64,000 bases of DNA from an uncultured bacterium (GTDB lineage: Bacteria > Patescibacteriota > Minisyncoccia > UBA6257 > GWB1-50-10): assembly GCA_963768835.1 (NCBI GenBank), contig CAVYJB010000002.1, positions 362,466-426,465 of the forward strand. The letters run 5' to 3'. Numbering within the stretch: position 1 is the first letter of the stretch; each line of letters opens with the position of its first letter. Both the position numbers and the translations under genes were made by a program. Below, piece by piece: positions 3,313 through 39,529 of the stretch. Under the pieces are notes generated by a model. That model saw only the letters and a list, made by a program, of their open reading frames with translations, was not told the origin of the DNA and made no database searches.

Positions 3313-5976
3313 ATGAAAAAGAAACACATTATCATCGTTAGCGTCGTCGCTGTGCTTCTCTTCGGCATGGTGGGGTTTCTGCGGACCGACTCCTCGGCGC
3401 GGAACACCCTTCGCGGCCTCGGGATGCTCCGGAGCAGGGGACTCGCGCAGCTCCTGGACCTTATCTCAGGCACCTCTACGTCTCCGGTTGAAACTACTTC
3501 GAATCCGCCCGAGAGCACCAGCACCTCCCCGACGCCGCCGCCACTGCCTACTGTCACGCTCCAGGCCGTCTCGACCACTATCACCGCCTCGAGCTCCACC
3601 CTGCTCCAGTGGTCCTCCACGGACGCGGATGCCTGTACGGCCTCGGGCGGGTGGAGCGGACCTGAAGCCACCTCGGGTACCGCGACGAGCTGGGCTCTCG
3701 CGACTGACACCCTTTTCTCCCTCGCCTGCACGAACGTGACGGGGAGCGCAACCTCCTCCGTCACGGTGGCCGTGGTTCCGCCGCCTGACACCACTCCGCC
3801 TACCGTCTTCTTCACAAGTCCCGTGGACGGGGCCAGCGTCTCCGGGACCGTCACGGTTGCCGCGAACGCCTCCGATAACGTGGGAGTGGCAGGAGTGCGG
3901 TTTACCCTGGACGCCGTGCCGCTCGGACCCGAGATTATCGCGACGACCTATGCGATGCAATGGGACACGGCGTCCACGACGAATGGTTCTCACACACTCG
4001 AAGCGATTGCGCGCGACGCGGCGGCGAACACGGCCTCTGCCACACTCACGGTGGCGGTCCTGAACGCTATCCCAAATACTTCAGTAGTTGTTCCGCCAAC
4101 CCTCGCAACACCCCCCTTCGGCATATCCTTTGCCGATTCTCTGCCTGGCCTTTCGGCGAACGCGCTTGGAGACCAACTCAATGCCGAGGTCGCGCTAGGG
4201 GCAAGGTGGGCGCGCATCGACATGGCCTGGAGCGACGTCCAGCCGATCTCGAGTACGACTTTCAACTGGGTAGATCTTGACCGGGTTGTGGCCGTAGCAC
4301 GGGCACGCAACATCCAGCTACTTCCCATGCTCGGCTACACACCCGCATGGGCGCGCCCCGCAGGGTGCACGGTTGAGACCTGCGCTCCCGCCAGCCCGAA
4401 TGCCTTCGCGGTTTTCGTGAAAGCGGCTGTTGCCCGCTACGCGCCCCAGGGCATCTTCGCGTGGGAGATCTGGAACGAGCCGAACATCACGGGTTTCTGG
4501 CAGCCCGCGCCGAGCCCGACGAACTACGTCGCGCTTCTCAAGGCGGCCTATGCCGCCATCAAGGCGCAGGAGCCCGCCTCCATCGTGATTTCGGGCGGTA
4601 TGGCGCCCGCGGCGACCGCAGGCTCGGATTTTTCGCCTATCGATTTCCTTACGCAGATATATCAGCAGGGCGCGGAACCGTACTTCGACGCCGTAGGGTT
4701 CCATCCGTACTCCTATCCCGCGATGCCGTCCTATGCAGTTTCATGGAACGCTTGGACGCAGATGTCGGCTACCACGCCGACGAGCCTCCGCAGCATCATG
4801 ATGGCGAACGGGGATTCTGGGAAAAACATTTGGATGACCGAGTACGGCGCGCCGACGGGAGGGCCCGGGGCGCTTGAATCCTCCGCCACAGACACACAGT
4901 TCACCGGGGCTCCCGATCACGTCACGGAAGCGCTCCAGGCGCAGATACTCTCAAGCGCCGTTGCGCTCGCGAGCGGATATTCTTGGGCGGGTCCGCTATT
5001 CTGGTACAGCTATCAGGATTTAGGGACTTCAAACACCACCAACGAGAACTTCTTTGGTATTCTCCGCTTTGATGGAAGTCAGAAGCCTGCATACGCCGCG
5101 ATGAAGCAGGCCTTCACGGGCACCGGCGGGGGAACAAGCGGAGGAACGACGACGAGTACTAGCACGAGCACTCCCTCGGGTGGAGGTGGAACTTCCACGA
5201 GCACGGCAACTTCGACACCTCCCAAGCTCGGTGGGAGTCAAACCTCAACATCCACGAGCACCTCCACGCTTCCTAAGGTGGGCGGGGGACAAACCTCAAC
5301 ATCTACAACGACCTCGACACTCTCACAGACGGCTACCAGCACCACAACCTCAACTCCGTTAACAGTTTCGGCCGTGCCGACCATCCTCGCATCCGGGGGC
5401 GGAGGAGGTGGAGGCGGAGGTGGAGGCGGCGGAGGAGGAGGCGGTATTCCTCTTATCCCGGCATCCACACCTCCAAATTCGGCTCTCAGCCCCAGTACGG
5501 CTGTTACGCTCCCTGCCACAGCGAACACGGGAACTTCAAACGCACCCGGAGGCGGTGGAGAAGGTGGTATTCCCGCACTCGCGGCCGGCGCTGTACTCGC
5601 CCCCGGCATACGCAGCACCAGCGTAGCAACCCTCCAGACCATGCTCACAGAGGATCCTACCTTGCTCCCCAAACGTTTCATCACAGGGTACTACGGAGCG
5701 GCGACGACTTGGGCTGTGGCACAGTTCCAGACGCGCTATGCGGTCCCGCTTTCTGCCGCGACCGGCGATTCCTCAGGCGTCGTGGGCAGCGTCACGCTTA
5801 TGAAACTAGATGAAGTCTTCGCACCGGAGACCTCAACCACGCCGACGTCCCCGTCCGCACCCCCAGCGGCCACCCTCCCCCCCGAGGTTCGAAGCGCGAT
5901 TACCACTAAGATTAATCTCCTTCTTCAGCTCGTGAACCTGCTCTACGCGCAGTTGCGACTCCTTACGGGCCACTGA
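3313..5976 (+). CDS. secreted multidomain hydrolase: signal peptide, Ig-like domain, GH5-like catalytic domain, Thr/Ser/poly-Gly linker, peptidoglycan-binding domain
   Basis: N-terminal signal/TM helix. Big/Ig-like segment (VTVAANASDNVGVAGVRFTLD). Catalytic core WEIWNEPN / TEYGAPTGGPG paralogous to 268..1599. TSTSTS and G17 low-complexity linker. C-terminal PG_binding_1-like motif (YYGAATTWAVAQFQTRY). Confidence 0.7.
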   Translation: MKKKHIIIVSVVAVLLFGMVGFLRTDSSARNTLRGLGMLRSRGLAQLLDLISGTSTSPVETTSNPPESTSTSPTPPPLPTVTLQAVSTTITASSSTLLQWSSTDADACTASGGWSGPEATSGTATSWALATDTLFSLACTNVTGSATSSVTVAVVPPPDTTPPTVFFTSPVDGASVSGTVTVAANASDNVGVAGVRFTLDAVPLGPEIIATTYAMQWDTASTTNGSHTLEAIARDAAANTASATLTVAVLNAIPNTSVVVPPTLATPPFGISFADSLPGLSANALGDQLNAEVALGARWARIDMAWSDVQPISSTTFNWVDLDRVVAVARARNIQLLPMLGYTPAWARPAGCTVETCAPASPNAFAVFVKAAVARYAPQGIFAWEIWNEPNITGFWQPAPSPTNYVALLKAAYAAIKAQEPASIVISGGMAPAATAGSDFSPIDFLTQIYQQGAEPYFDAVGFHPYSYPAMPSYAVSWNAWTQMSATTPTSLRSIMMANGDSGKNIWMTEYGAPTGGPGALESSATDTQFTGAPDHVTEALQAQILSSAVALASGYSWAGPLFWYSYQDLGTSNTTNENFFGILRFDGSQKPAYAAMKQAFTGTGGGTSGGTTTSTSTSTPSGGGGTSTSTATSTPPKLGGSQTSTSTSTSTLPKVGGGQTSTSTTTSTLSQTATSTTTSTPLTVSAVPTILASGGGGGGGGGGGGGGGGGIPLIPASTPPNSALSPSTAVTLPATANTGTSNAPGGGGEGGIPALAAGAVLAPGIRSTSVATLQTMLTEDPTLLPKRFITGYYGAATTWAVAQFQTRYAVPLSAATGDSSGVVGSVTLMKLDEVFAPETSTTPTSPSAPPAATLPPEVRSAITTKINLLLQLVNLLYAQLRLLTGH
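5395..5448 (+). repeat. (GGN)n simple-sequence tract encoding G17
   Basis: ggcggaggaggtggaggcggaggtggaggcggcggaggaggaggcggt inside 3313..5976. Confidence 0.85.
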
Positions 5977-6166: not shown

Positions 6167-7999
6167 ATGTTTTTCCTCATCGCTCTTGCTATGGCAGTCG
6201 CGGGCAGCGTTCCGCTGCTTGTTGCCCGCCAGTTTTCGAACGCGGTCATCGCGACGATCCCGTATTTCCTCCTCTCGCTGGTGGTCGTCTATTGCGGCGT
6301 TCCGTCCCTTGTCTGGCCGCTGCTTGGCGTCGTCGGAGTCCTCACGCTCGTGTATCTCGCGATCAGCGCGGCCGTCGCGATCAATACGGGGGATCTTGAA
6401 ACCCCTGGTAAGATTGCCGTTCTGGCTTTTCCTGCGATTGGGTTCCTCGCGCTCACCGTGGAATCATGCGGAGGGTGCGAAGCAATCAATGCGGAAGAGT
6501 ATTCGAATCTGATTGGCACGGTTGAGCACCGGGAATGGACGCAGGACGTGCAGCCGAAGGATCCGAAGCATATTCGGATCGTCTCCACCGAGAACGCATT
6601 CTCCCTGGCGGATAAGCAGTTCGGTTCCGTGCCCGGCGCGATCGGGAGCCAGTTCGAGATCGACAAGGAATACATGACGCTTCAGATCGTTCGGGGCGAG
6701 CTCTGGTATGTCGCTCCGCTCGATTTCCGGGGCTATAGTGTCTGGACGTCGACGGATGGCGCGCCGGGGTACGTCATGATCAGCGCGGAAGATCCGTTCT
6801 ATCCCGTGAAGGTTGTGACGAATCACAAGTTCGTGTATACGCCGGGGGCGTTCTTCGGCAACGAACTCGACCGGTATCTCTGGTTGCATGGCTATATGAT
6901 GAAGGGCCTCACCGACGTAAGCTTCGAGATCGACGAGGATCTGAAGCCGTGGTGGGTGGTGACGGTGTTCGAGCCGACCATCGCGTTCTGGGGGGAGAAG
7001 ACCCGCGGGGTGGTGCTCGTGGATCCGGAGAGTGGCGCGCTGCAGTACTATCCAATCGGGGAAATACCGAGCTGGGTCGACCGCGCCGTTCCGAAATCGT
7101 TCACAAAGAGTTACATCGAGTACGTCGGAAAACTGAAGGATGGGTGGTTGAATAGTTGGTGGGAGAAGAAGAACCTCACCCAACCCGAGGAACCGAGGCT
7201 CATCTATGGCTCCGATAAGCAGCCGTACTGGGCGACCGTGATCACCTCGACGAACAACAAGGACAACTCGATGGTCGGGCTCTACTACACGAATTCCCGC
7301 ACCGGGAAAACGGTGTTCTACCACGCGAAGGGCAGCACGGAGGAGGCCATCCTCACCGCCGTGAACAACAAGGTGTCGTACATGAAGCGCCACGGCGACA
7401 GCCCCGTGCTCTATAACATTTACGGGACCATGGCCTACATCGTGCCGGTTCTTGGCGAGAACCATATTTTCCAGGGCGTGGCCATCTGCGACGTCGAGAA
7501 CCTCCTCGTCGCGCTGGGCAGCAACGAGGTCGAGGCGTATCGGCAGTACCAGAAACTCCTCTCGTCCGTCGGGCAGCAGGTTGCCCCGGAACTCGAGCAT
7601 GGGATGTCCGAGGTGGTTGGCGTTGTCGATCGCTTCGCCGCGGAGCCAAGGGAAGGCGGTATGCTTTATATTCTCCATACGCCCGCCGCACCGGATGTCC
7701 TGTTCTCGGGAGGATACGAACTTTCACCCAAGCTTCCCGTGACGAAAGAAGGGGACAAGGTGAAGCTCGGATTCGTGAGTTCGGGCGAGGATGTCGTTCC
7801 GCTGACGCATTTCGACAATCTGTCGCTATCCTTGCGGATGACGACGGACGAGGCCGCCGTGCGTGCGCGGGGGGAGGAACGGCGCGATAGCGTCCGTGTC
7901 GAGAAGGAGGATCGATCGGCACGGGCGACGGTGCAGAACCTCTCCGATGAAGATCTGAAACAGCTTCTCAAACTCAAAGACGAGAAAGGGAAGAAATAA
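6167..7999 (+). CDS. membrane-anchored hypothetical protein (3-4 N-terminal TM helices, large extracytoplasmic domain, charged C-terminus)
   Basis: 610-aa ORF. Promoter TTGACG-N17-TATACT upstream. Hairpin terminator downstream. No recognisable catalytic motif. Confidence 0.5.
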   Translation: MFFLIALAMAVAGSVPLLVARQFSNAVIATIPYFLLSLVVVYCGVPSLVWPLLGVVGVLTLVYLAISAAVAINTGDLETPGKIAVLAFPAIGFLALTVESCGGCEAINAEEYSNLIGTVEHREWTQDVQPKDPKHIRIVSTENAFSLADKQFGSVPGAIGSQFEIDKEYMTLQIVRGELWYVAPLDFRGYSVWTSTDGAPGYVMISAEDPFYPVKVVTNHKFVYTPGAFFGNELDRYLWLHGYMMKGLTDVSFEIDEDLKPWWVVTVFEPTIAFWGEKTRGVVLVDPESGALQYYPIGEIPSWVDRAVPKSFTKSYIEYVGKLKDGWLNSWWEKKNLTQPEEPRLIYGSDKQPYWATVITSTNNKDNSMVGLYYTNSRTGKTVFYHAKGSTEEAILTAVNNKVSYMKRHGDSPVLYNIYGTMAYIVPVLGENHIFQGVAICDVENLLVALGSNEVEAYRQYQKLLSSVGQQVAPELEHGMSEVVGVVDRFAAEPREGGMLYILHTPAAPDVLFSGGYELSPKLPVTKEGDKVKLGFVSSGEDVVPLTHFDNLSLSLRMTTDEAAVRARGEERRDSVRVEKEDRSARATVQNLSDEDLKQLLKLKDEKGKK

Positions 8000-8047
8000 G
8001 ATAGGGGACCGTAGTGTACGTGTCCCATGAAACAAAGGGCGTGAGTC

Positions 8048-8080
8048 TATGACTTACGCCCTTTTTATTTACATCGGATA
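8048..8080 (+). terminator. intrinsic terminator (GC hairpin + TTTTTATTT)
   Basis: gggcgtgagtctatgacttacgccc tttttattt. Confidence 0.65.
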
Positions 8081-8114
8081 AAGCCTGCGCTCTCCGAACG
8101 AGGACCCTGAAACA

Positions 8115-8144
8115 TTGACAATATTGCATTATATATGCTATAAT
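8115..8144 (+). promoter_or_regulatory. consensus promoter TTGACA-N18-TATAAT (module copy 1)
   Basis: ttgacaatattgcattatatatgctataat, followed by a conserved leader to ATG 8196. Confidence 0.7.
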
Positions 8145-8195
8145 AGAGTTAGCAAGAAACTCACGTTTTCCCTCACAACTTCAAAAGGCACATCC

Positions 8196-9050
8196 ATGAA
8201 GATTATTGCATCTCCATCGACCGTTGCTGCGATTGAGCGGTATTTCAAATACCTCGTTCCTCCTGAATCCTTCGACGATCTCGTGATTGTCATCGCGGAG
8301 TTCGTGGAAGGCAATGGGTACTATTCCGATCTTCACGGGATCGACCAGGTGAAGCGCTACGCCGACGACCCGAAACTTTTCGTGGTTCTCATGAGCTTCT
8401 TGAATGCGGAGGCAATCGCGGAGCGGGGGCCGGAATTTGCGGGCCTTCTGAGTTATGCAAACGTCGCGTTTGCGCGTCTCCCGGACGTGGGAGAAGCAGT
8501 GCGCGTGTATCGTGAACTGAAGTCAGGAAGCAAGAAGGAGGATGCGTTGGGGAAGAGGCTGTTCGAGATCGAAAACATCGACCGGACGGTATCTATTCTC
8601 CGGCACGACCTCCATTACGCCGAGGAGAATGCCAAGAAGATGCAGAGCTGGCTTACGCAGGCTCGCGAAGCGGGTTTCAGCGGCTCTCCCCAGGAGATCG
8701 TCGCCGCCGTGCGCAACTGGAAGCGCGCCACCGCAGGAAAGTGCGAAGGGCAGTATTTCGGAGGGCTCTTCGTGGATTTCCAGGGAACCCTCGTGAAGGA
8801 TGGCGTGGTGCAGAAGGCGGTTCTGGAGAAGGTCCGTCGGCTTGCCGCGGGGCGCTCCATCACGGTCATCACAGACAGCGATCTCCAGGAGGTTCGGAAA
8901 ACCCTGGCGGGGCTGGGCTTGCCCGTGGCGTCAAAGTTTGACCTCAAGGGCGCCGAGCTCGAAACTGTCGTTGATGATCTTTCGCAGAAGGAGTTCCGCG
9001 CGACCTACGGGATCGTTCCTCGGCAGTTCATCCGCGTCGATGCGCTATAA
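8196..9050 (+). CDS. hypothetical protein (C-terminal DFQGTL HAD-motif-I-like segment, second Asp replaced)
   Basis: ORF downstream of a consensus promoter and a conserved leader. Terminator at 8048..8080 closes the upstream gene and another follows this one. Confidence 0.45.
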   Translation: MKIIASPSTVAAIERYFKYLVPPESFDDLVIVIAEFVEGNGYYSDLHGIDQVKRYADDPKLFVVLMSFLNAEAIAERGPEFAGLLSYANVAFARLPDVGEAVRVYRELKSGSKKEDALGKRLFEIENIDRTVSILRHDLHYAEENAKKMQSWLTQAREAGFSGSPQEIVAAVRNWKRATAGKCEGQYFGGLFVDFQGTLVKDGVVQKAVLEKVRRLAAGRSITVITDSDLQEVRKTLAGLGLPVASKFDLKGAELETVVDDLSQKEFRATYGIVPRQFIRVDAL

Positions 9051-9171
9051 TCTTCCACCGATCGAAATCCAGGAGGACTGGAGTGAAAAAACCGAAGGAT
9101 TTTTACTGACGTAATTGTCCCCACACGCGGAGCTCGCCGCGTGGAACTGAAGGCCCATGGCCACGAGTTAA

Positions 9172-9203
9172 GGCTCAGCATTATGCTGGGCCTTTCTATT
9201 TTT
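9172..9203 (+). terminator. intrinsic terminator
   Basis: ggctcagca tta tgctgggcc tttctattttt. Confidence 0.5.
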
Positions 9204-9217
9204 AAGCGCCTGGAATA

Positions 9218-9247
9218 TTGACAATCCGTACATATTTGTGCTATAAT
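9218..9247 (+). promoter_or_regulatory. consensus promoter TTGACA-N18-TATAAT (module copy 2)
   Basis: ttgacaatccgtacatatttgtgctataat. The leader is near-identical to copy 1. Confidence 0.7.
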
Positions 9248-9297
9248 GCTTCTAGCAAGAAACCTCACGTTTCCCCTCACAACCCTAGAGAGAAGAC

Positions 9298-10161
9298 ATG
9301 AAAACCTCAGCGCAGGAAGCAAAAGGACAGCAGAAGCCCCTCGAAGGACAGGACATCGAGATCGCCGGTCGCATGGACTGCGGGGAGATCGGCGAAGAGT
9401 TGCAGCGGCAGATCCTGCCCTACGCCAAAGACAAGACGCTGGTCGTCGCAACTCCGACGGTCGCGGCTGTCACCGATTCGCGGAGCGAATGGGGTTCGAC
9501 CGGCGGCATCGGCTACTACAGCCAGGTCCGCGTTTTCTGCGGAAGCCAGAACGAGATGCAGGAATGGCAGTGGCGCGATCGCTACAATGTGAGCAAGGAC
9601 AAGCCGTGGCTCGCCGTCGATCACCTCGGAGAGGTGAAGGTGTCGGAGAAGGACGGGAAGGTGATCGTGGAGGTCGAGCTCCTGAACAATCACTACCCCA
9701 GCCGCACCGCTACCTTCACGTTCAACCCCTCGAAGGCGGAGACCGTTCAGATGCTTTCGATGGAAGCGCAAACGGCCTTCGTCACGACGGCGGAGAACGA
9801 GATCGCCCGCATCATGGACGGGCTCAACCGGCTGTGGAAGGCCAAACCCTCCCAGTTGCCAGACTACCCGGACGCCGGCTACGTCCCGTACCGCCAGCCT
9901 TCCGTTAAACAGCGGGAGTTTCGCCCCGAGATCGGTGTCGCCGCCTTTGTGACCGAGGAGCAAATCGATCACCTGGGAAGCGATCGCCAGATGCGGTACG
10001 AGCTCTACGTGCTGACGGCGGGGAGCGGGAAGGCCGAACGCAAGGCCGATGATCACGGCTATGGTCGCGAAGGCGGTGCGTTCCTCGCGATTCTCGAGGT
10101 CAAACCGGACCGCATCGTCATCAACACCAAGCGTGGGAAGTCAACGATTTCTCTCCGTTGA
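9298..10161 (+). CDS. hypothetical cytoplasmic protein
   Basis: ORF driven by a promoter/leader module nearly identical to that of 8196..9050. Terminator at 10204..10242. Confidence 0.45.
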   Translation: MKTSAQEAKGQQKPLEGQDIEIAGRMDCGEIGEELQRQILPYAKDKTLVVATPTVAAVTDSRSEWGSTGGIGYYSQVRVFCGSQNEMQEWQWRDRYNVSKDKPWLAVDHLGEVKVSEKDGKVIVEVELLNNHYPSRTATFTFNPSKAETVQMLSMEAQTAFVTTAENEIARIMDGLNRLWKAKPSQLPDYPDAGYVPYRQPSVKQREFRPEIGVAAFVTEEQIDHLGSDRQMRYELYVLTAGSGKAERKADDHGYGREGGAFLAILEVKPDRIVINTKRGKSTISLR

Positions 10162-10203
10162 CCCCCGGGTCAGGAACTTCGGAAGCGAAAGGAGGTGATT
10201 CAC

Positions 10204-10242
10204 AGCCACCCCGCGAGTATTCAACGGGTGGCTTTTATTTAT
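10204..10242 (+). terminator. intrinsic terminator
   Basis: agccaccc cgcgagtattcaac gggtggct tttatttat. Confidence 0.65.
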
Positions 10243-10311
10243 CCCGGACGGATTCGTCGTTCGTCTTTTGCCGCGGAATCTCAGTTGAGGTCCCGCCCCC
10301 TTTGGTTTAGT

Positions 10312-12087
10312 ATGAACCCAATGCCCCCGGGAACCCTCGCTTGCAAGAACTGCAAGCAATCCTTCGCGATTGAACAGGACGACCTCAGTTTCTACGAGAA
10401 GATGCAGGTCCCTGCTCCGACGTTTTGCCCCTCTTGCAGACGGCAGCGGAGGTTTTTATGGAGGAATGAACGGTCGCTCTATAAGCGGCAGAGCGATTTC
10501 TCAGGGAAGGAAATCATTTGCCTGTACTCTAAGGAGAAACCGTTCAAGGTTTACGACCAGAAGGAATGGTGGGGCGACGAGTGGAGCGCTATCACGTATG
10601 GCAGGGCGTACAATTTTTCTAAACCATTTTTCACACAATTTTACGAACTCCAGCGAGAGGTTCCCCGGCTTTCCATTTTCAATCAGCAGTGCACGAATGC
10701 CGACTACACCAACCAGTCGTACGAGAACAAAGACTGCTATCTTTGTTTCAGTGTTGCGAAGTCAGAGGAGAGCGCTTACTGCGCCAATATCAACGAGGTA
10801 AAGCAGACGCTCGATTCCCTTTACCTCACAAAATCCGAGCTCGTATACGAGGGAATCGATTCAGAGCAGTGCTACAACTCCACGTTCCTCATCAATTCAG
10901 ACAACTGCATCAATTGTGCATTCCTGTTTGACTGTAAGAATTGTACGGATTGTATAGGAGGGGTTGGTCTACGGAATAAGCAACACGTCTTTTGGGGGGA
11001 GCAGCTCACGAAGGAGGCTTACGAACGAGAGAAGAACACTTTCGATCTGGGGAGCCGCCTGAAGCAGCAGGAAGCGAAAAAGAGGTTTGCGGACCTTATT
11101 CTCGGCTTCCCGCGTGTCTCGGAGCGATTCAAGAAATGCAGTTCCTGTACGGGGGATCTGCTTACGAACTGCAAGAATGTGAAGGAAGGATTCGGCGCAT
11201 TCGACCTCGAGGACTGCCGCTACAGCGCTCGAATCTACAGCTGCAAGGACACGCATGACAGCTATGGGTTGGGTGAAAGCCAATTGGCATATGAGACCAT
11301 CGGGAATCAAACCATCTACAACGTCGCTTTCTCGAACATTACGAGCGACTCCCGGAACTGCCGCTACTCAGACCTTTGCTTCAACTGCGAGGACTGCTTT
11401 GGCTGCGTGGGCTTGCGAAAGAAACAGTACTGCATTTTAAACAAACAGTACTCCCAGGAGGATTATGAAGCGCTCATCCCTAAAATCGTTGAGCATATGG
11501 CTACGATGCCGTTCGTTGATACGCAGGGACATGCGTATGTCTACGGTGAGTTTTTCCCTCCGGAATTTTCCCCCTTCGCATATAACGAGACCATTGCACA
11601 GGAGTATTTCCCACTAGGAAAAGAGAAAGCCGCCCAGCAAAAGTACGTGTGGAAAGACTCCGAGGTGAGGGATTACAAGATTACCAAGAGGCCCGGGGAA
11701 CTTCCAGATCACATCAAAGATGTCGGCGACGAAATACTCAACGATGTCATCGGATGCGAACATGATGGTAACTGCAAGGAGCAGTGCGCTACAGCGTTCC
11801 GGCTGACCAAGGAAGAATTGGCGTTCTATCGGCGGATGAACATTCCGCTCCCTCGGTTGTGCTCAAATTGCCGACACTATGAACGCTTAGGGAAGAGGAA
11901 TCCTTTGATGGTGTGGGGTCGCGCTTGCCAGTGCGTTGGGATGAAGTCCGAGAATGGCGTCTACCAGAATACCGTCACCCACCAGCACGGGGCAGGGAAG
12001 TGTCCCAACAAGTTCGAGACTTCTTATGCGCCGGACCGCAAGGAGATCGTCTACTGCGAGCAGTGCTACAACGCGGAGGTCGTATAG
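10312..12087 (+). CDS. Cys-rich repeat protein, paralog A (zinc-ribbon-like N- and C-terminal motifs)
   Basis: N-terminus CKNCKQSFAIEQDDLSFYEKMQVPAPTFCPSCRRQRRFLWRNERSLYKR. The C-terminus repeats the motif (AFRLTKEELAFYRRMNIPLPRLCSNCRHYERL). Internal C.[DN]C.GCVGLR repeats. Homologous along its length to 44453..46114. Confidence 0.6.
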   Translation: MNPMPPGTLACKNCKQSFAIEQDDLSFYEKMQVPAPTFCPSCRRQRRFLWRNERSLYKRQSDFSGKEIICLYSKEKPFKVYDQKEWWGDEWSAITYGRAYNFSKPFFTQFYELQREVPRLSIFNQQCTNADYTNQSYENKDCYLCFSVAKSEESAYCANINEVKQTLDSLYLTKSELVYEGIDSEQCYNSTFLINSDNCINCAFLFDCKNCTDCIGGVGLRNKQHVFWGEQLTKEAYEREKNTFDLGSRLKQQEAKKRFADLILGFPRVSERFKKCSSCTGDLLTNCKNVKEGFGAFDLEDCRYSARIYSCKDTHDSYGLGESQLAYETIGNQTIYNVAFSNITSDSRNCRYSDLCFNCEDCFGCVGLRKKQYCILNKQYSQEDYEALIPKIVEHMATMPFVDTQGHAYVYGEFFPPEFSPFAYNETIAQEYFPLGKEKAAQQKYVWKDSEVRDYKITKRPGELPDHIKDVGDEILNDVIGCEHDGNCKEQCATAFRLTKEELAFYRRMNIPLPRLCSNCRHYERLGKRNPLMVWGRACQCVGMKSENGVYQNTVTHQHGAGKCPNKFETSYAPDRKEIVYCEQCYNAEVV

Positions 12088-12127: not shown

Positions 12128-12157
12128 TTGACAAATAGCATTTATATATGCTATAAT
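12128..12157 (+). promoter_or_regulatory. consensus promoter TTGACA-N18-TATAAT (module copy 3, different leader)
   Basis: ttgacaaatagcatttatatatgctataat. The spacer core CATT(T)ATATATGC is shared with copy 1. Confidence 0.65.
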
Positions 12158-12162
12158 GTTAA

Positions 12163-12184
12163 CACAGAATCGAATGATTCTGTG
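12163..12184 (+). promoter_or_regulatory. perfect 9-bp inverted repeat cacagaatc-gaat-gattctgtg, starting 6 nt after the -10 box of promoter 3
   Basis: Seen directly. Overlaps the predicted TSS. Confidence 0.4.
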
Positions 12185-19388: not shown

Positions 19389-21401
19389 ATGGAATTCAAG
19401 ATCGAATCAAGCTTCAAGCCGGCCGGCGACCAGCCGAAAGCGATCGAAGAGCTTGTTGCAGGACTAAAAAAAGGTTACCGCGACCAGGTGCTTTTGGGCG
19501 TCACGGGTTCCGGGAAAACGTTCACGATGGCGAACGTTATCGCGGAGATCGCAAAAGCCGACGCTCGTGATCGCGCACAACAAAACGCTCGCGGCCCAGC
19601 TCTGCAACGAGTTCCGCGAACTTTTCCCGCACAACTCCGTCAATTATTTCGTCTCGTACTACGATTACTACCAGCCGGAGGCGTACATCCCGTCGAGCGA
19701 TACCTACATCGACAAGGAGGCGCTCATCAACGACGAGATCGACAAGCTCCGCCACGCGGCGACGACCGCGCTCCTCACGCGGCGCGACGTGATCGTCGTG
19801 GCGTCGGTGTCGTGCATCTACGGTTTGGGCGCTCCCTGCGGTCTACGCGGGGAACATCATCCATTTCAAAGTCGGCGATAAGATCGAACGCGAAAGATTT
19901 TTCGCGGAAGTTCGTGGAGCTGCAATTCAGCCGCACGACCGCCGACCTGAAGCGCGGCACGTACCGCCTGCGCGGCGAAAGCTGGGAGATCATGCCGGCC
20001 GACCGCGAGGTCATCTATAACTTTGAGGTCGACGGGACGGCGTGATTCGCGCGATCTACGAGATCGATCCGGTGCAAAGGATTCCAGCCGGGCAAAACGC
20101 CGCAGGTCGCGGACGTTATTTTCGCGCCGGCGAAGCATTTCATCACGGAGGCGCCGGAACGGCGAGCGCGCGATCAAGGAGATTCAGGTGGAACTTGCGC
20201 GACCAGCTGAAAAAGTTCGAGAGCGAAGGAGAAGTTGCTCGAGGCGGAGCGCTGGAGCGCCGGACGAAGTTCGATCTCGCGATGATGCGCGAGGTGGGTT
20301 ACTGCCACGGCATCGAAAACTATTCCCGCCATCTTTCGGGCCGTCCGCGGGCGAGCCGCCGGACACGCTCCTCGATTATTTTCCGCACACCGAGAGCGGC
20401 AAGCCGGACTTCCTTACGATCATCGACGAATCGCACATGACCGTGCCGCAGATCCAGGGCATGTATCAACGGCGACGCCGCGCGCAAGAAAACGCTCATT
20501 GAATTCGGTTTCCGATTGCCGTCCGCGGCCGACAACCGGCCCCTGCGTTTCGCCGAGTTCGAGAAGCGCATCGGGCAGGTGATCTACACGTCGGCGACGC
20601 CGGGCGCGTACGAAATAGAGAGCAAGCGAGCAGACCGTGGAACAGATCATCCGGCCGACAGGCCTCGTTGATCCGAAGATCACGATCCGGCCCGCGCGCG
20701 GGCAGGTGGACGATCTTATTCCGCGCATAGAAGACGCGGGTAAAAAAGCATGAGCGCGTGCTCGTGACGACGCTCACGAAACGGATGGCCGAGGACCTTT
20801 CGGCGTATCTCGAAGAGAAAAAAGTGAAAGTGAATTATCTGCACAGCGACGTAAAGACGCTCGACCGCATCAAGATCCTGACCGACCTTCGGAAGGGGAA
20901 GATCGAAGTGCTCGTTGGCGTGAATCTGCTTCGCGAAGGACTCGACCTGCCGGAGGTTTCGCTCGTCGCGATCCTGGACGCCGACAAAGAAGGATTTCTG
21001 CGAAGCGAGGTTTCGCTCATCCAGACGATCGGCCGCGCGGCGCGTAACGTCGAAGGCGAAGTTCTGATGTATGCCGACAACATCACCGGCTCCATTGACC
21101 GCGCCGTGAAAGAAACCGACCGCCGCCGGAAGATCCAGGTCGCGTACAACAAAGAGCACCACATCACGCCGACCACGATCGTGAAAGCGATCACGAACAT
21201 CCTGCCGACAGCGGACATCGCTGAGATCCTGAAGCTCGAGAGAAAGCGCCGCGGACGAAAACGGCGCTCAGAAGCGCTTATCGCCGAAAGGAACGCGAGA
21301 TGAGAGACAGCACCGAGGCGCTCGACTTCGAGCTCGCCGCCATCCTCCGCGACGAAATAAAAGAGCTGAGAGAAGGAGGTACAGAAGAAAGAAAAAAGTA
21401 A
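19389..21401 (+). pseudogene. uvrB: uvrB (excinuclease ABC subunit B) disrupted by multiple frameshifts
   Basis: Segments in three frames spell almost the whole of UvrB: [18 protein letters not shown] / [30 protein letters not shown] / [10 protein letters not shown] / [30 protein letters not shown] / [11 protein letters not shown] / [21 protein letters not shown] / [20 protein letters not shown] / ..[42 protein letters not shown] / C-terminal UVR domain LDFELAAILRDEI. At least 6-8 single-base shifts, two of them in A/T runs. Confidence 0.8.
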
Positions 21402-22742: not shown

Positions 22743-23333
22743 ATGCCAGAGGCACCGCACGATCCACGGGAGCGAAGCGACGCAGAGCTTGTGGTGCTCG
22801 CGCTGCGCGAGCCCCAGGGCTACCGGCACCTCATGGAACGCTACGAGCCGAAGCTCCTGCGCTACATTCGTCGTATCTCCGGCGTCGTGGAAGAGGACGC
22901 GGAGGACATCCTGCAGGAGGTTTTCATCAAGGTGTACCAGAATCTGAACGACTTCGACCGCGCGCTCAGTTTTTCATCCTGGATTTACCGCATTGCCCAC
23001 AACGAGACCGTGAGCCACTGGCGGGGGCGGCAGGCGCGGCCGCCGGAGGTGTACGTGACCGATGACGACCGGGAGCTTGTGGAGCTTCTCCGTGCCGACG
23101 TGGACCTCCCGGCGACGCTCGACCGCAGCTATACCGCGGAGGCGGTCCGGGGGGTGCTGGAGCATCTGGACTCCAAGTATCGCGAGGCCCTCGTCCTACG
23201 CTTTCTTGAAGAGAAGAGCTACCAGGAGATGTCCGACATTCTCCGGAAACCGCTGGGGACGATCGCGACGCTTCTGAATCGCGCGAAGCAGCGCTTCAAC
23301 GACGAGGTTGTCCGGAGGAACCTGAAATTTTAA
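22743..23333 (+). CDS. ECF-type RNA polymerase sigma factor (sigma-70 family regions 2 and 4)
   Basis: Region 2 (DAEDILQEVFIKVYQNLNDF..WIYRIAHNE) and region 4 HTH (REALVLRFLEEKSYQEMSDILRKPLGTIATLLNRAKQRF). Confidence 0.8.
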   Translation: MPEAPHDPRERSDAELVVLALREPQGYRHLMERYEPKLLRYIRRISGVVEEDAEDILQEVFIKVYQNLNDFDRALSFSSWIYRIAHNETVSHWRGRQARPPEVYVTDDDRELVELLRADVDLPATLDRSYTAEAVRGVLEHLDSKYREALVLRFLEEKSYQEMSDILRKPLGTIATLLNRAKQRFNDEVVRRNLKF

Positions 23334-24164: not shown

Positions 24165-25283
24165 ATGAAAAGCCTATCCTACACGCTGCTGTTTCTGGTG
24201 ATCGTTGCCCTCCTTCTGCCCGCCACCTCGAACGCTGCCGCTCCGTGGAACCTCGTGAACAGCCTGAGTCTTTCGAGCTGGTCCTCCGGATATTCCAACA
24301 CGGCGGTTTCGGGCCAGTCGTACGACTTTGTCATCACGACCGCGGCGAGCACCGGGACGCGCTTCGGGATTTTCTCTCGGGCGTATACCGCAACGAATCT
24401 GCCGCAGACCAACATGGTGGTCGCAATCGAGCTCAATGCGCCCAGCACCCAAAACGTCCGGGTCTCGATTAGCCTGTACTACCAGGGCAATCCGCAGGTG
24501 AACTCCGCCCTGGTGTATGTCGTAGGGGGCACGAGTTTCGCCGATTACACCTTCCTGTTCCCGGTCTACGCGGGTCAATTCGACGAGATGCGCTTCAACT
24601 TTTCGTATCTCGACGGAGAAACCGGCACCCGGGAAATCCTGGTGGACAACATCCGGATCGACGGGACGCTGCTGGACAACTGCGACAATCCGCTGCCCAT
24701 CCAGCTTGCGACCTTCCAGGTCGCCTCGGTGGTGGGAAGCGACGTAACGCTGTACTGGAAGACGCTGTCGGAGACCAACAACTACGGGTTCGACGTGGAA
24801 CGGAGTTCCGACGGAAAGAACTTCCAGAAGCTCAGCTTCATCGCCGGGCACGGGACCACGCTCGCGACGCATGAGTACTCCTATGAGGACAAGAGCGTTG
24901 CGGTCGGAACCTGGTACTATCGCCTGAAGCAAACGGATCTCGACGGTTCGGCGACGTACTCGGAAGTGCAGGTCGCGAAGGTCGAGGGTGTCGCGACGGT
25001 CGCGGCGCCTGAAGTGCCGACGGTGTACTCCTTGCGGCAGAACTATCCGAATCCCTTCAACCCGGCGACAAAGATCGAGTACGCGCTACCGGCAGCCGGT
25101 CGCGTGACGCTCAAGGTCTACGACGCGCTGGGGCGGGAAGTCGTGACACTCGTGGAGGGGATGCAGACCGCAGGATCGCATACGGCGACATTCGACGCCA
25201 CAAGCCTTCCGAGCGGAACTTACTTCTATCGCATCGGCGCGGGTACGTTCACGGCGACCCACAAGATGCTGCTTCTGAAGTAG
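24165..25283 (+). CDS. secreted protein with a T9SS-type C-terminal sorting domain
   Basis: Signal peptide. C-terminus YSLRQNYPNPFNPATKIEYALPAAGRVTLKVYDALGREVVTLVEG..GTYFYRIGAGTFTATHKMLLLK matches the Por-secretion-tail consensus. Confidence 0.65.
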   Translation: MKSLSYTLLFLVIVALLLPATSNAAAPWNLVNSLSLSSWSSGYSNTAVSGQSYDFVITTAASTGTRFGIFSRAYTATNLPQTNMVVAIELNAPSTQNVRVSISLYYQGNPQVNSALVYVVGGTSFADYTFLFPVYAGQFDEMRFNFSYLDGETGTREILVDNIRIDGTLLDNCDNPLPIQLATFQVASVVGSDVTLYWKTLSETNNYGFDVERSSDGKNFQKLSFIAGHGTTLATHEYSYEDKSVAVGTWYYRLKQTDLDGSATYSEVQVAKVEGVATVAAPEVPTVYSLRQNYPNPFNPATKIEYALPAAGRVTLKVYDALGREVVTLVEGMQTAGSHTATFDATSLPSGTYFYRIGAGTFTATHKMLLLK

Positions 25284-25392: not shown

Positions 25393-25421
25393 TTGACAAG
25401 ATAAGGTCTGTAATTTATAAT
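25393..25421 (+). promoter_or_regulatory. promoter TTGACA-N17-TATAAT, -10 box ends only 9 nt before ATG 25431 (leaderless or near-leaderless)
   Basis: ttgacaagataaggtctgtaatttataat gccggcatt ATG. Confidence 0.55.
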
Positions 25422-25430
25422 GCCGGCATT

Positions 25431-28400
25431 ATGAATACGTTCGGAAAGTTCGCAACGGTGGCGGTTGTAGGGTCGCTCCTCGTGCTTGAGGCCGTCGTGC
25501 CCGCCGGCACCGCGCTCGCGTGGCAGGGTCCGACCCTCACCGCGACGCCCAGCGTCACCTCGGTCACCGTTTCGTGGACGACCGCGGCGGACACGTCGGA
25601 GCACTCCGTCCATTACTCGACATTGCAGATCGACGGAACGAATTTCAATTCCGCGACGAACGCGCCCGGCGTTCCGGCGCCGCTTCCGAACCAGGCGCAG
25701 AGCGTCACGGTCAACGGACTCATCTCGAACACCACCTACTACTTTGCATACTGGTCCACCTCCACGGTAGGCGAGGCGAAGTTCTCGACGGCGTCTGCGA
25801 AAACCCTCACGCCGCCGCCTCCGGCGGCTCCGAACCCGGTTTCGAACCTCACCGCGACCGCGAGCGGCACGACCTGCATCGCACTCGCCTGGGACACGCC
25901 CTCCGGAGGCTCCCTTTCCCAGTTTTATCTTAGCTATTCCACGTCCGCGATCACGGGTTCCAACTTTGCATCCGCGACGCCCGCGACGGGTCTTCCGCTC
26001 CCGATCTCCGGGACGCACCAGACCTTCACGCAGTGCGGGCTTTCCGCCGGTACGACCTATTACTTCGGTCTCACGGTGGCGAACACGGTAGGTACCCAGT
26101 CGTCTCTCGTGACTTCTTCGGCGGCCACCCAGTCGGGCGGCGGAGGCGGCGGTGGTGGAGGCGGCGGCGGAGGCCTCCTGCCTCCGGTTGCGGTTACGAG
26201 CCTTACGGCCTCGAGCTCCATCAATTCCGTGGATCTTTCCTGGAAGACTCCTTCGAGCGACAACCTTTCACAGACGAGCGTGTGGTACTCCCTTTCTCCG
26301 ATCACGTCCGGGAACGTCGCGGGCGCGACCGCCGTCACGGGCGTCCCGCTCCCGCGGAAGGGAGAGATCCAGACGGTGCATGTCCCGGGCCTCACCGCGG
26401 GCACGCTGTATTACTTCGCGGTGCAGGAGGTGGATATCGTGGGGCAGACTTCTCCTCTCGCGACCGTTTCCGCGACGACGCTCACGGGCGCGAACCTTTC
26501 GAGCGTCCCTCCGGTCACAAATCTTCTCGCCTCGAGCTCGGTGAACTTTATCAATCTCTCCTGGCTCACCCCGCAGGATGACAATCTCTCGCAGTTCAAT
26601 GTTCGGTACTCGACCTCGAGCATCACCGACGCGAACTTCGCGCAGGCGGCGGTCGCCGCAAACCCTCCGCTCCCGCGGAAGGGCCAGGGGCAGGGAATGC
26701 AGGTCTCGGGCCTGCAGGCGTCCACGCTCTACTTCTTTGCGGTCCAGGTACAGAACATCGTCGGCGCGACCTCGCCGTTGGCGACCGTCTCGACCACAAC
26801 CCTCGCGTCGGGGGGCGGTGGCGGCGGTGGGGGAGGTGGGGGTGGCGGGCTTCTTCCGCCCGGTCCCGCGACGAACCTTGCCATCACAAGCTATGTGGAC
26901 GGCGTGGATCTTTCCTGGCTCACTCCGCAGAACGACAACCTCTCGCAGTTTTCCATCCGTTACTCGACTTCAAGCATCACGGCGGGGAACTTCGCGCAGG
27001 CCGCGGTAGCTCCGAACCCTCCGCTCCCGCGGAAGGGTGAAACCCAGATGCTCCACATTGGGGGGCTCCAGAGTGGCACGACGTATTACTTCGCGATCCA
27101 GATCCAGGACATCGTGGGACAGACCTCGCCGTTGGCGACGATCTCCGGCACGACGCTTTTGAATCTCATCGGCACGCCGCCCGTGACGAATTTCACCGCG
27201 ACGCCCGATGGTACAAACGGCACGACCTGCATCGATCTCGCCTGGGACACCCCGCAGGGGCTGCTCCTCTCGGAGTTCCATCTGCGCTATTCCACGGACG
27301 CCATTACAGATGACGTGAGCTTTACCTCGGGGACTCTGGCGACCGGCGTACCGCTCCCGCGGCACGGCGAGCACCAGACTTTCACGCAGTGCGGGCTTTC
27401 GGCAGGCACCAATTATTCCTTCGGTATTAAGATCGCGAACGTTGTGGGCGTTGAATCGCCCCTCGTGACCGCATCCGCGGCCACCACGTCGGGTGGTGGA
27501 GGCGGTGGCGGCGGGGGAGGTGGAGGCGGCGGTGGAGGCGGAAGTGTCGGTGGGGGCGTCGTGACGGTCGGTGGCGGCGGTGGAGGTGGGGGCGGCGTCT
27601 CCGTGGGCCCCTCCGTGCCGACGAACGGCTCTATCCGCATCAACGGCGGTGCCGCGATCACGTACACGCGCGCTGTGACCCTCACGCTCACCGCGACGGG
27701 GGCGACACAGATGGCTATCTCGAACTCGCCGGTTTTCACGAACACCGTGTGGCTGCCGTTCGCGACGACCATGCCATGGACGCTCACGGACGGTTACGGC
27801 TCGAAGTCGGTCTACGCCCAATTCCGCAATGCGTCAGGGATCGCCTCTCCGGTTGTCGCGGGCATCCTCTATGCGCCGTATCCGGCGACGATCGGAACGG
27901 GAGGCGGCGTCGGGCGCGCCTATGACATCCAAGACGTCAACACGGCAATGGTGAACTGGGGCAAGAGCGGGACGGTCTCTGACCTGAACGGCGATGGCAC
28001 GGTGAACGTGCGGGATATCGCAGTGATGTACGCTGACTGGGCACAGAACCCTCGGCCCATCACGTCGGCGCCGACTCTCGCAACCTTCGTTTCTCCGACC
28101 CCTGGGAACGCGAACGTTCTGCCCGGTGACGAGCTCTCGGTGAACGTAGTGGCGGATCCGAAGGGAAGCCGCGATTACACCGCCGAGGTGGCGCTTCAGT
28201 ATCCGACGGATCTCCTTGAGTTTGAAACCTTCGATTTCCACGGCGGGTGGGTGCCGGTGGTGCGCCCCGAGTTCGACCAGGATAATCGGACGGACGGGAT
28301 CATTCTGAAAACCGGGGCCTACCCGGGTGGGTTCACGCGACCCGTAGCCGTCGGTACCGCCATCTTCCGTGTGAAGCAGCAGGGTGCCGGGACCGTCCGC

Positions 28401-29234: not shown

Positions 29235-31752
29235 ATGCAGGACAAAATCATCATCAAGGGGGCCCGGGAGCACAACCTGAAGAACATCAACCTCACGATT
29301 CCGCGGGGGAAGATGGTCGTGTTTACGGGGCTCTCGGGGTCCGGGAAGTCCTCGCTCGCCTTCGATACCATCTTCGCGGAGGGCCAGCGTCGGTACATCG
29401 AATCCCTCTCCGCGTACGCGCGGCAGTTTTTGGGCCGCTTCGACAAGCCGGACGTGGACGAGATCGAGGGACTCAGCCCCGCCATCTCCATCGACCAGAA
29501 GAGCCACTCCGCGAACCCGCGCTCGACCGTGGCCACCATCACGGAGATCTACGACTACCTCCGCGTGCTTTTCGCGCGCGTGGGGCAGCCATTCTGCCCG
29601 CGGTGCGGCCGCGCCATCCAGAAGACTCACGAACGAGGAGATAGTGGACATCGTGGCCGACGCGCCAAGAATCGCAACGACGGACAAGAAAATCGTGCTC
29701 CTCGCGCCCGCCGTGCGCGGCCGGAAAGGGGAGTACTACCAGATGCTCTACGACTTCCTGAACGCGGGTTTCAGCGAGGTGCGCATTGACGGGAGTTCCA
29801 ATCGCTCCGGGAGCGCGTCGAACTCTCGCGCTACAAGCAGCACACCATCGAGCTCGTCGTGGACCGCATCCCCTCGATGCTCGACTTTACGAACAAGGAC
29901 CACCGGCTGCGGCTCTCGGAGGCCGTGGAGTCCGGTCGAAGTACGGAAACGGGGTCGTGGCGTTCTGGACGAGGAGGAAGTCTCCCTCTCCGCGCAGTTC
30001 ACCTGCCCCGTGACGGTTTCTCGTTCCCCGAGATTGAGCCGCGTCTCTTCTCCTTCAACAGCCCGTACGGCGCCTGCCCGGCGTGCAACGGCTCGGCGAC
30101 GAAAGCATCTGGTCCGAGAAGATCTGCCCCGTCTGCCTCGGCAAGCGCCTGGAAGAAAGGCCCTGAACGTTCTCGTGGGCGGGAAGAGCATCGCGGCGGT
30201 CGCGGCGATGCCCATCGACGACGCCGACGCGTACTTCGCGAAGCTGACGCTCCCAGATCGAAGGCGAAGGCGGAGTCGCCGAAGCCCCGCTCCGGGAGAT
30301 TACGGACCCGGCTCAAGTTCATGGTGGACGTGGGGCTGGAGTACCTGACGCTGGAACGGAAGGCGGGCACCCTCTCGGGCGGGGAGGCCCAGCGCATCCG
30401 GCTAGCATCCCAGATCGGCTCGCGCCTCACCGGCACGCTCTACGTGCTCGACGAGCCCACCATCGGTCTCCATCAAAGGGACAACGCGAAGCTTCTCGAG
30501 ACCCTCCACGAGCTTCGCGATCTCGGGAATACAGTCCTGGTCGTGGAGCACGACGAAGAGACCATCCGCTCCGCGGATTACCTCGTGGATATCGGTCCCG
30601 GCGCGGGCGTGCACGGCGGCCGCATCGTCGCGGAAGGCCCCATCCCGGAGGTGCTGAAAGACAGAAGGATACGGAGTCCCTGACCATCGAGTACCTGAAC
30701 GGAAGAAAGTTTATCGAGGTGCCGCGCGAGCGCCGCGCGGTGAAACGGGACCACGAAAGTCTGAAGATCCGCGGCGCGACGGCGAACAATCTCCAGAATC
30801 TCGATCTGGATATACCCCTGCGGCGCTTCACGGCCGTGACGGGCGTCTCGGGTTCCGGGAAATCCACCCTTGGTCTACGACATCCTTTTTAAAACCCTCT
30901 CGAACAAGTTCAACGGGTCGGCGTACAAGGTGGGGGCGCACAGGGCGCTCCTGGGGGCGGAGTATATCAACCGCATCGTGAACATCGACCAGTCTGCCAT
31001 CGGCCGCACGCCGCGGTCGAACCCCGCGACCTACGTCGGCGCCTGGACCTTCATTCGGGACCTCTTCGCGGCGTCGGAGGATGCGCGCGTCCGCGGCTAC
31101 AAGCCTGGCCGGTTTAGCTTCAACGTGCGCGGGGGGCCGTTGCGAGAACTGCGAGGGGCACGGCCAGATCGCCATTGAGATGCACTTCCTGCCCACGGTC
31201 TACGTGACCTGCGACGTCTGCAAGGGGAAGCGCTTCGACCGCGAAACGCTCGAGGTCGAGTACAAGGGCAAGAACATCCATGAGGTGCTCCAGATGACGG
31301 TGGAGGAGGCAGTCACGTTCTTTGAAGACATCCCCTGGCTTTTCGACCGGCTGAAGATCCTGGATGAGGTGGGGCTGGGCTACATCGAGCTTGGCCAGTC
31401 CGCGACGACGCTCTCGGGCGGGGAGGCCCAGCGCATCAAGCTGGGGGCGGAGCTCGGCAAGCGCGACACTCGGCGCACCCTTTATCTCTTGGACGAACCG
31501 ACGACGGGGCTCCATTTCGCCGATGTCCAGCACCTCTTGAATGTCCTGAACCGCCTTGTGGATCGCGGCAACACTGTGGTGGTCATCGAGCACAATTTGG
31601 ATGTCATCAAGACCGCCGACTGGGTTATCGATCTGGGGCCCGACGGTGGCGAGAAAGGCGGGAAGCTGATCGCGGTGGGCACCCCGGAGGCGGTTTCTAA
31701 AAAAGTGGGCAGCGCGACGGCGCCGTATCTGCGGAAAGTTCTGAAAGCATAG
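29235..31752 (+). pseudogene. uvrA: uvrA (excinuclease ABC subunit A) disrupted by many frameshifts
   Basis: UvrA sequence is spread over at least 5 overlapping ORFs in different frames: [61 protein letters not shown] / [36 protein letters not shown] / [23 protein letters not shown] / [25 protein letters not shown] / [59 protein letters not shown] / [27 protein letters not shown] / [60 protein letters not shown]. Both ABC modules are recognisable. Confidence 0.8.
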
Positions 31753-31761
31753 AAAAATTAA

Positions 31762-31790
31762 GGCACCCGAGGAAAGGGTGCCTTTTGTTC
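31762..31790 (+). terminator. intrinsic terminator after the uvrA pseudogene
   Basis: aaggcaccc gaggaaa gggtgcctt ttg. Confidence 0.55.
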
Positions 31791-31806
31791 TGTTATCGAT
31801 AGTCTC

Positions 31807-32319
31807 TCATGTCCTTTTGGAGGCGCTTGGTATTTCGCGTCTGGGGCTACTCGAGTTTCGGTACATCCGTTCGATTCTTCGCGCGATTTTCGGCGCGAAC
31901 TCCGTGCAGCGGAGTGTCGGCAACGTGACCAGGTACAGGACCGCTCCGAGAACCAGGCCGCCGCAAACTCCTCCCACGAGCCCGATGAGAAACACAAAAA
32001 AGAAGGTTCCACAAATGGCCGAGAACGAGTCTGTGAAGATGCCTCGGATCACGGCGAACATGAGCGCGTTCCACACACTCCCGACGCCCACGAAAAGGAG
32101 GCCGCTGAAGAATCCTGGGGGTGTTGCCCGGAGAAGCGCTAGCCCCAGGAGTACGGCGACGGTCGCACCGGAGATGATACCAAGTACGACGTCGCTTTTG
32201 CCGACGGGTTCGATGCTGAACGGTTTGAATATGTCTGCAAGAACGAACGCCATCGCGGGGAGCAGGAACGTACCGAGAAATCCCAGCCGCCCATGCTTGA
32301 AAGTAATCCATCGCTTCAT
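31807..32319 (-). CDS. hypothetical integral membrane protein (4 TM)
   Basis: 170-aa hydrophobic ORF on the minus strand. Confidence 0.45.
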   Translation of the reverse strand: MKRWITFKHGRLGFLGTFLLPAMAFVLADIFKPFSIEPVGKSDVVLGIISGATVAVLLGLALLRATPPGFFSGLLFVGVGSVWNALMFAVIRGIFTDSFSAICGTFFFVFLIGLVGGVCGGLVLGAVLYLVTLPTLRCTEFAPKIARRIERMYRNSSSPRREIPSASKRT

Positions 32320-32427
32320 TGGAGCACCTCTTGATATGTGAGTGGGATGGAAATATAGAGTGATATGAGCTGAGAACGTTGTACCACTAGTAAGACCATC
32401 GCGTCAACTCGTTGGTGGCACAGGGCC

Positions 32428-39492: not shown

Positions 39493-39528
39493 TTGACTTG
39501 AATCTGCTATATATGCTAAAGTATAAAC
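39493..39528 (+). promoter_or_regulatory. promoter-like TTGACT ... TATATATGCTAAAGT abutting ATG 39530 (possible leaderless transcript)
   Basis: Shares a TATATATGCTA core with promoter modules 1 and 3. Confidence 0.35.
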
Positions 39529-39529
39529 C

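Follow-up and report, generated by a model that had tools for sequence, protein, structure and literature searches.

Two neighbouring genes in the genome of an uncultured member of the Patescibacteria encode unrelated proteins and are preceded by nearly the same promoter and nearly the same predicted start of the message. The locus raises the question of how unrelated genes came to carry a common leader, and of whether that leader serves a function of its own, in the RNA or in the DNA. The analysis was made on a stretch of 64 kb, here called the window, and all positions are counted from its first nucleotide.

Two transcription units with consensus promoters

The following features define the locus:

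8034..8064, plus strand: intrinsic terminator, a 14-bp stem followed by a T run, of the gene 5′ of gene 1 (6167-7999, 610 aa)
8115-8144, plus strand: promoter P1, TTGACAATATTGCATTATATATGCTATAAT, with TTGACA, an 18-nt spacer and TGcTATAAT (extended −10)
8196..9050, plus strand: gene 1, 284 aa, of an uncharacterised family of proteins of about 285 aa
9170..9194, plus strand: intrinsic terminator of gene 1, found by the terminator scan
9218-9247, plus strand: promoter P2, TTGACAATCCGTACATATTTGTGCTATAAT, with TTGACA, an 18-nt spacer and TGcTATAAT
9298..10161, plus strand: gene 2, 287 aa, short form of a conserved Patescibacteria family
10205..10242, plus strand: terminator-like hairpin 3′ of gene 2, GCCACCC...GGGTGGC and then TTTTATTTAT, read by eye

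The genes at 8196-9050 and 9298-10161 form two separate, self-contained transcription units, each made up of the terminator of the previous gene, a consensus extended −10 sigma-70 promoter, a 5′UTR of about 45 nt, an ORF and a terminator of its own. Gene 1 is isolated as its own unit by the terminator at 8034..8064. The hairpin 3′ of gene 2 was missed by the terminator scan because its loop is longer than 8 nt. From 6 to 14 kb the genes follow one another on the plus strand, none with a Pfam domain and each with its own promoter-like site and terminator.

P1 and P2 each match the consensus in 12 of 12 positions and have an 18-nt spacer and the TG extension. Together with a third promoter, P3, described below, they show the full sigma-70 extended −10 arrangement (TTGACA, a spacer of 17 ± 1 nt and TGnTATAAT; 12/12). 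Four sites of the form TTGACA-N15-19-TATAAT were observed in the 64 kb against an expectation of 0.03.

A minus-strand promoter-like site (TTGCTA-16-TATAAT) was found at 8128-8155, antisense to the P1 region, built from the complement of TAGCAA in the first leader copy and from the near-palindromic AT-rich spacer. As there is no equivalent at the second copy, this site is probably fortuitous. Between the stop of gene 1 and its terminator, at 9071-9109, an AGGAGG Shine-Dalgarno sequence is located 6 nt 5′ of a GTG that opens a mini-ORF of 8 codons (VKKPKDFY).

The shared leader block

Downstream of the two promoters, the following block was present in two copies:

8150-8179, plus strand: leader block copy 1 (30 nt), TAGCAAGAAACTCACGTTTTCCCTCACAAC
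9253-9283, plus strand: leader block copy 2 (31 nt), TAGCAAGAAACCTCACGTTTCCCCTCACAAC

The sequence-only reading had claimed that the shared sequence exceeds the promoter consensus and includes a leader of about 30 nt, and the comparison of the two modules segment by segment bore this out. The 9 nt 5′ of the −35 hexamer were identical in 7/9 positions, TTGACAAT in 8/8, the remaining spacer in 7/16, TATAAT in 6/6, the 5 nt directly after the −10 hexamer in 0/5, the block in 29/30 plus one indel, and the 14 nt 5′ of the ATG, which hold the RBS region, in 5/14. The block thus stands at 29/30 against 7/16 for the spacer, and it differed from the unconstrained segments taken together (spacer, post −10 and pre-ATG) with p=6e-8 in Fisher's test. 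If a uniform identity of 0.75 is assumed, a run of at least 29/30 has P=0.002, and no such block pair arose in 100 shuffles. The spacer, post −10 and pre-ATG segments have diverged to random level, while the hexamers and the block stayed alike.

This patchy identity makes the pair of modules unlike a recent neutral duplicate. Judged from the alignment, the pair would be either an old duplicate in which the hexamers and the block have been preserved, or the result of copying the block alone. The possibility that the motif is simply the start of a longer duplicated segment, raised earlier as an outcome that would undo the proposal, did not materialise: the coding regions are unrelated, and the block is therefore not the edge of such a segment.

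In both copies the block is separated from the −10 hexamer by 5 nt. The predicted +1 positions are 8151 and 9254, taken from the typical start 7 nt after the −10 hexamer, so that the block begins at −1/+1. Its 3′ end, which reads CUCACAAC, lies 14-16 nt before the ATG, and the block corresponds to essentially the whole predicted 5′UTR minus the ribosome-binding region. It is poor in G (3 in 30 nt) and contains a direct repeat, CTCAC-N7-CTCAC, with the same 12-bp spacing in both copies; only two such sites occur in the 64 kb.

The two copies differ by one 1-nt indel (an extra C in copy 2) and one T/C transition, and 29 of 30 positions are identical. This is the simplest alignment, and it replaces one with two indels that had been drawn previously. 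Both differences are located at homopolymer borders, and homopolymer lengths in the genome assembly are uncertain, as seen from a stretch at about 5877-5884, inside an 887-aa glycosidase-like ORF, where an independent Logan assembly of run ERR11594402 has C6 (L044, about 15610) and the window has C7. Over 7900-10300 the Logan assembly is identical to the window, and the two leader differences are therefore probably real.

The two genes and their products

Gene 1 belongs to a family of about 250 representatives. Its C-terminus carries a weak HAD-like motif I, and the structure model is poor (pLDDT 51). The family of gene 2 comprises at least 78 sequences, many of which are longer at the N-terminus by a Cys-containing domain of about 160 aa; no remnant of this long-form domain was found in the window. 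The AlphaFold model of gene 2 is confident (pLDDT 89) and rich in beta structure, and no PDB fold match was obtained for it (best TM about 0.2), which is why the product may represent an undescribed fold.

The two proteins are unrelated to each other (BLASTP E=21), in agreement with the earlier statement that they are not paralogs. By their annotation, the homologues of the proteins encoded here belong to Patescibacteria MAGs. In none of the other loci fetched did the families of gene 1 and gene 2 lie side by side, so the genomic context lends no support to a functional link between them.

Distribution of the block

The search within the source genome covered the window together with 9.7 kb upstream and 3.6 kb downstream from Logan contigs, about 78 kb in all, and no third copy of the block was found there. 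In larger collections, from which the source genome is absent, the exact core AAGAAA(N)CTCACGTTTYCCC (18.5 bases) was required. This core matched 8 times in the GTDB species genomes, 22 times in JGI metagenomes and twice in IMG/VR. The matches lie in unrelated contexts, mostly coding, and all 32 of 32 are without a promoter upstream and without CTCACAAC downstream; all are chance matches. On reading the sequence, no terminal repeats, terminal inverted repeats or target duplications were seen around the block. The mobile cassette put forward by the sequence-only reading finds no footing in these results, as there are two adjacent copies only, with none more in the 78 kb, and the GTDB, JGI and IMG/VR scans were negative for the core pattern beyond chance.

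The leader of the only close homologue of gene 1 (L003, 46% identity) is different and lacks the block, and the block is likewise absent upstream of three gene 2 homologue loci (L014, L015 and L017/L018; 55-64% identity). The same reading had named absence upstream of orthologous genes as a point that would count against it, and the block was indeed missing 5′ of every homologue examined, all of them distant (46-64% identity). Judging from the sequences, the relatives that bear these homologues have a much lower G+C content, and no close relative was found. Absence in distant relatives points to a block that is specific to the lineage, and is no proof that it lacks function.

Folding and RNA-level searches

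Each copy of the block can form one small hairpin:

8156..8169, plus strand: weak 5-bp hairpin GAAAC-UCAC-GUUUU in copy 1 (−1.3 kcal/mol)
9259..9273, plus strand: weak 5-bp hairpin GAAAC-CUCAC-GUUUC in copy 2 (−2.8 kcal/mol)

Shuffled sequences folded as well as these hairpins in 50/200 cases for copy 1 and 9/200 for copy 2, and the folds of the leaders did not stand out from their shuffles (z = +0.78 and −0.35). Both differences between the copies spare the small hairpin, the extra C being located in the loop and the T/C change turning a G-U pair into G-C. With the first 75 nt of coding sequence included, folding was again no better than in shuffles (z +0.23 and +1.37, gene 2 being the worse), and this lack of excess structure leaves the start region open. 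A search of the window with Rfam 15 at the gathering threshold gave no match, and a permissive search of 8000-9400 gave two matches at chance level (E=1.9 and 8.5), both outside the block. A cis-acting RNA element of the structured kind was thus not supported, given folding no better than in shuffles and the negative Rfam searches.

In composition and place the block is a G-poor, unfolded, C/A-rich tract just 5′ of the RBS. Several other leaders in the window are also C/A-rich. A general ACA/CA enhancer signal in the leaders of the genome was considered and rejected, since it was gone after composition-matched shuffling (ACA P=0.38), and the enrichment of CTCAC in leaders is due mainly to the two block copies themselves. 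A complement of the block of at least 13 nt, as expected of an sRNA partner, was not found in the 78 kb, which is about one eighth of the genome. An upstream ORF or leader peptide was dismissed because the predicted leader is without a start codon, and an ECF-sigma promoter in the block (GAAAC-N16-CGT) because a CGT is missing at the required distance.

Related promoters and hairpins elsewhere

Two further promoters were compared with the modules:

12128-12157, plus strand: promoter P3, a related module that shares GCATT(T)ATATATGCTATAAT with P1
12164-12183, plus strand: strong 8-bp hairpin (−9.3 kcal/mol, z −4.4), ACAGAAUC-GAAU-GAUUCUGU, where the P3 transcript is predicted to start
39493-39522, plus strand: fourth promoter, TTGACT, an 18-nt spacer and TGcTAAAGT, sharing TATATATGCTA

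The spacer core that had been proposed as common to the promoters holds in part: the string ATATATGCTATAAT is exact in P1 and P3 only, and P2 reads ATATTTGTGCTATAAT at the same place. The descriptions of the third promoter, with its inverted repeat at the predicted +1, and of TATATATGCTA at the fourth site proved accurate. The arms of the P3 hairpin (AGAAUC/GAUUCU) resemble those of the block (AGAAAC/GUUUC) with a two-sided change; among three sequences, this likeness is suggestive at most. The 5-bp stem of P1 and P2 begins at about +6, some 5 nt from the predicted 5′ end, and the 8-bp stem of P3 at +1.

In the promoters at 25393-25433 and 39493-39532 an ATG follows the −10 hexamer by 9 and 7 nt (TATAATgccggcattATG and TAAAGTataaaccATG, respectively), and the mRNAs look leaderless. 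The genes at these two sites encode a 1081-aa FN3-repeat protein and a protein with Sigma70_r4 and HARE-HTH domains.

At other Patescibacteria loci (L014 and L039), strong promoters with the TG extension likewise have 5′ hairpins after them. At 1395-1600 of L014, the closest homologue of gene 2 has a TTGACA/TGCTATACT promoter, and its leader, some 170 nt long, contains two strong hairpins; a tRNA-like sequence is located just 5′ of this promoter and leader.

Other features of the window

Two genes, uvrB and uvrA, appear to be in pieces:

19389-21303: uvrB region
29235-32341: uvrA region

The pieces of uvrB lie in different frames, the N-terminal part at 19389-20045 and the C-terminal part at 20758-21303, with no recognisable domain between them. 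Those of uvrA, also in different frames, are the ABC N-terminal part at 29235-29789, UvrA_inter in 29644-30348 and the ABC C-terminal part at 31081-31752. These are either pseudogenes or homopolymer errors of the assembly.

Two large Cys-rich proteins (10312-12087 and 44453-46114) are paralogues that share an N-terminal treble-clef-like zinc-finger segment, the DNA of which is 74% identical between 10341-10428 and 44476-44563. An ECF-type sigma factor gene lies at 22743-23333; next come, in this order, a possible anti-sigma gene and the gene of a Por_Secre_tail protein (24165-25283). Por_Secre_tail is the C-terminal sorting domain of type IX secretion and is unexpected in a Patescibacterium.

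Comparison with known systems

Stem-loops at the 5′ terminus stabilise certain mRNAs, as in ompA of E. coli. That type places a hairpin near the 5′ end of a monocistronic mRNA with high expression, and P3, with its hairpin at 12164-12183, and the other Patescibacteria loci fit it well. The hairpins of P1 and P2 depart from it, as they have only 5 bp, are barely stable and begin some 5 nt into the predicted transcript. LexA boxes of Gram-positive bacteria, GAAC-N4-GTTC, are repressor operators that overlap the transcription start. The block resembles them in its location at +1 to +30 and in the GAAAC-N4-GTTTT core of copy 1, and differs in a core that has AAAC and not GAAC and in the N5 spacing of copy 2. 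An SOS operator for LexA was rejected on the unequal spacing of 4 and 5 nt and because no related motif was found upstream of lexA (L045 13040-13123).

The nearest analogue in kind is the upstream homology box of the ospE/ospF-related (erp) genes of Borrelia burgdorferi (Marconi et al. 1996, J Bacteriol 178:5615, cited in PMC10016077). As far as the citing account describes it, the likeness consists in a conserved upstream segment that several genes came to share by recombination or duplication. The P1 and P2 modules have the corresponding arrangement, the same promoter and 5′ leader being placed 5′ of non-homologous ORFs. In that account the Borrelia box occurs in numerous copies on many cp32 prophage plasmids, whereas the block has two adjacent chromosomal copies and no multicopy family.

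For a possible mode of working, the nearest analogue is found in the C/A-rich (ACA) translation-enhancing stretches 5′ of the Shine-Dalgarno sequence that are targets of the sRNA GcvB (Yang, Figueroa-Bossi and Bossi 2014, PMC3879156), and the agreement is confined to composition and position. Like those targets, the block is G-poor, C/A-rich, unstructured, located 5′ of the RBS region and common to non-homologous genes. GcvB targets are short, degenerate and spread over a regulon, in contrast to 30 nearly identical nucleotides in front of two genes. Unlike in the GcvB case, no G/U-rich partner RNA was found in the 78 kb, and ACA was not above base composition.

Possible origin and function of the block

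The explanation favoured here, tentatively and with a little less than an even chance of being right, is that of a locally duplicated expression module with a shared 5′UTR function, which would act at the level of RNA. The promoter-plus-leader module would have arisen by local duplication or recruitment within the lineage, and selection would hold the block. Most likely the block would act in the mRNA, given its left edge at the predicted +1, its low G content and its lack of structure. With a 5′UTR in common, both messages would load ribosomes alike and be equally stable, and a trans-acting RNA or protein might bind both at an identical site. Expression of the two unrelated genes would then be strong and parallel. 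Conservation is far higher in the leader than in the promoter spacer, an argument for constraint, and the 1-nt indel that splits the block would be better tolerated by an RNA than by a dimeric DNA site. Several results speak against a shared 5′UTR function: the +1 is a prediction, the stability of the hairpin is marginal and the copies number only two; the block is absent 5′ of the homologues, no complement of at least 13 nt was detected in the 78 kb, and the ACA excess reflects base composition.

A near-perfect block amid diverged flanks would fit a DNA operator as well as an RNA element. One transcription factor binding at +1 to +30 could block or modulate RNA polymerase at both promoters and so co-regulate the genes. 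The site just 3′ of the −10 hexamer is a typical position for a repressor, the CTCAC-N7-CTCAC repeat keeps an identical 12-bp spacing at the only two sites in the 64 kb, and the block holds an imperfect palindrome, GAAAC-N4/5-GTTTY. The spacing of this palindrome is nevertheless unequal (4 nt in copy 1 and 5 nt in copy 2), the 1-nt indel cuts TAGCAAGAAA off from the remaining block, and 30 nt at 97% identity exceed the need of most operators. A DNA site would not be expected to be so strongly asymmetric between the strands (3 G in 30) or to have its left edge at +1. Among the genes of the 6-14 kb neighbourhood none encodes a transcription factor in which a DNA-binding domain could be recognised, and there is no related motif upstream of lexA. 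An operator, the main rival of the shared 5′UTR, is considered somewhat unlikely on this balance, and the results as a whole fit either an RNA role or an operator role.

It is also unlikely, and more so, that the block has no function of its own and is what remains from a recent duplication, or from a short tract of gene conversion between nearby paralogous promoters. Such an origin would agree with the presence of only two copies, 1.1 kb apart, with their absence from the relatives and public collections scanned and with the lack of significant structure. A recent duplication should, however, have kept the flanks alike, yet these stand at 7/16, 0/5 and 5/14 against 29/30 for the block, a run that is improbable at a uniform identity of 0.75 (P=0.002, as above), and a conversion tract of 30 nt needs flanking identity, which is missing. 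The same sequence 5′ of unrelated genes and the small hairpin could have pointed to a structured cis-regulatory RNA (a riboswitch, a thermometer or a protein-binding leader) or to a small promoter-carrying mobile element. Rfam was negative at gathering and permissive thresholds, the folds equal those of shuffles in a whole leader of only about 45 nt, and neither dispersed copies nor terminal inverted repeats or target duplications were seen; these last readings are largely refuted and have very little probability left.

Significance

The block pair is real and is probably kept by selection, as judged from the pattern of identity between the two modules. The element is a local curiosity, confined to a single locus of a single lineage, and no widespread new element; with one locus and no detectable relatives its wider significance is limited, and no general question is opened. 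A more specific proposal, to which we give a low probability, is that the block is the recognition site of a Patescibacteria-specific post-transcriptional regulator, a G/U-rich sRNA or an RNA-binding protein that reads CUCAC-N7-CUCAC, and that this regulator couples the expression of two conserved, uncharacterised protein families. If true, this would be a first leader-based mini-regulon in reduced genomes with few transcription factors. The modules also offer a compact natural pair of strong promoter and 5′UTR for a phylum in which genetic parts are scarce. Should the block prove functional, copying about 80 bp, the promoter and the start of the message, would have been enough for a reduced symbiont genome to wire two unrelated genes to one signal.
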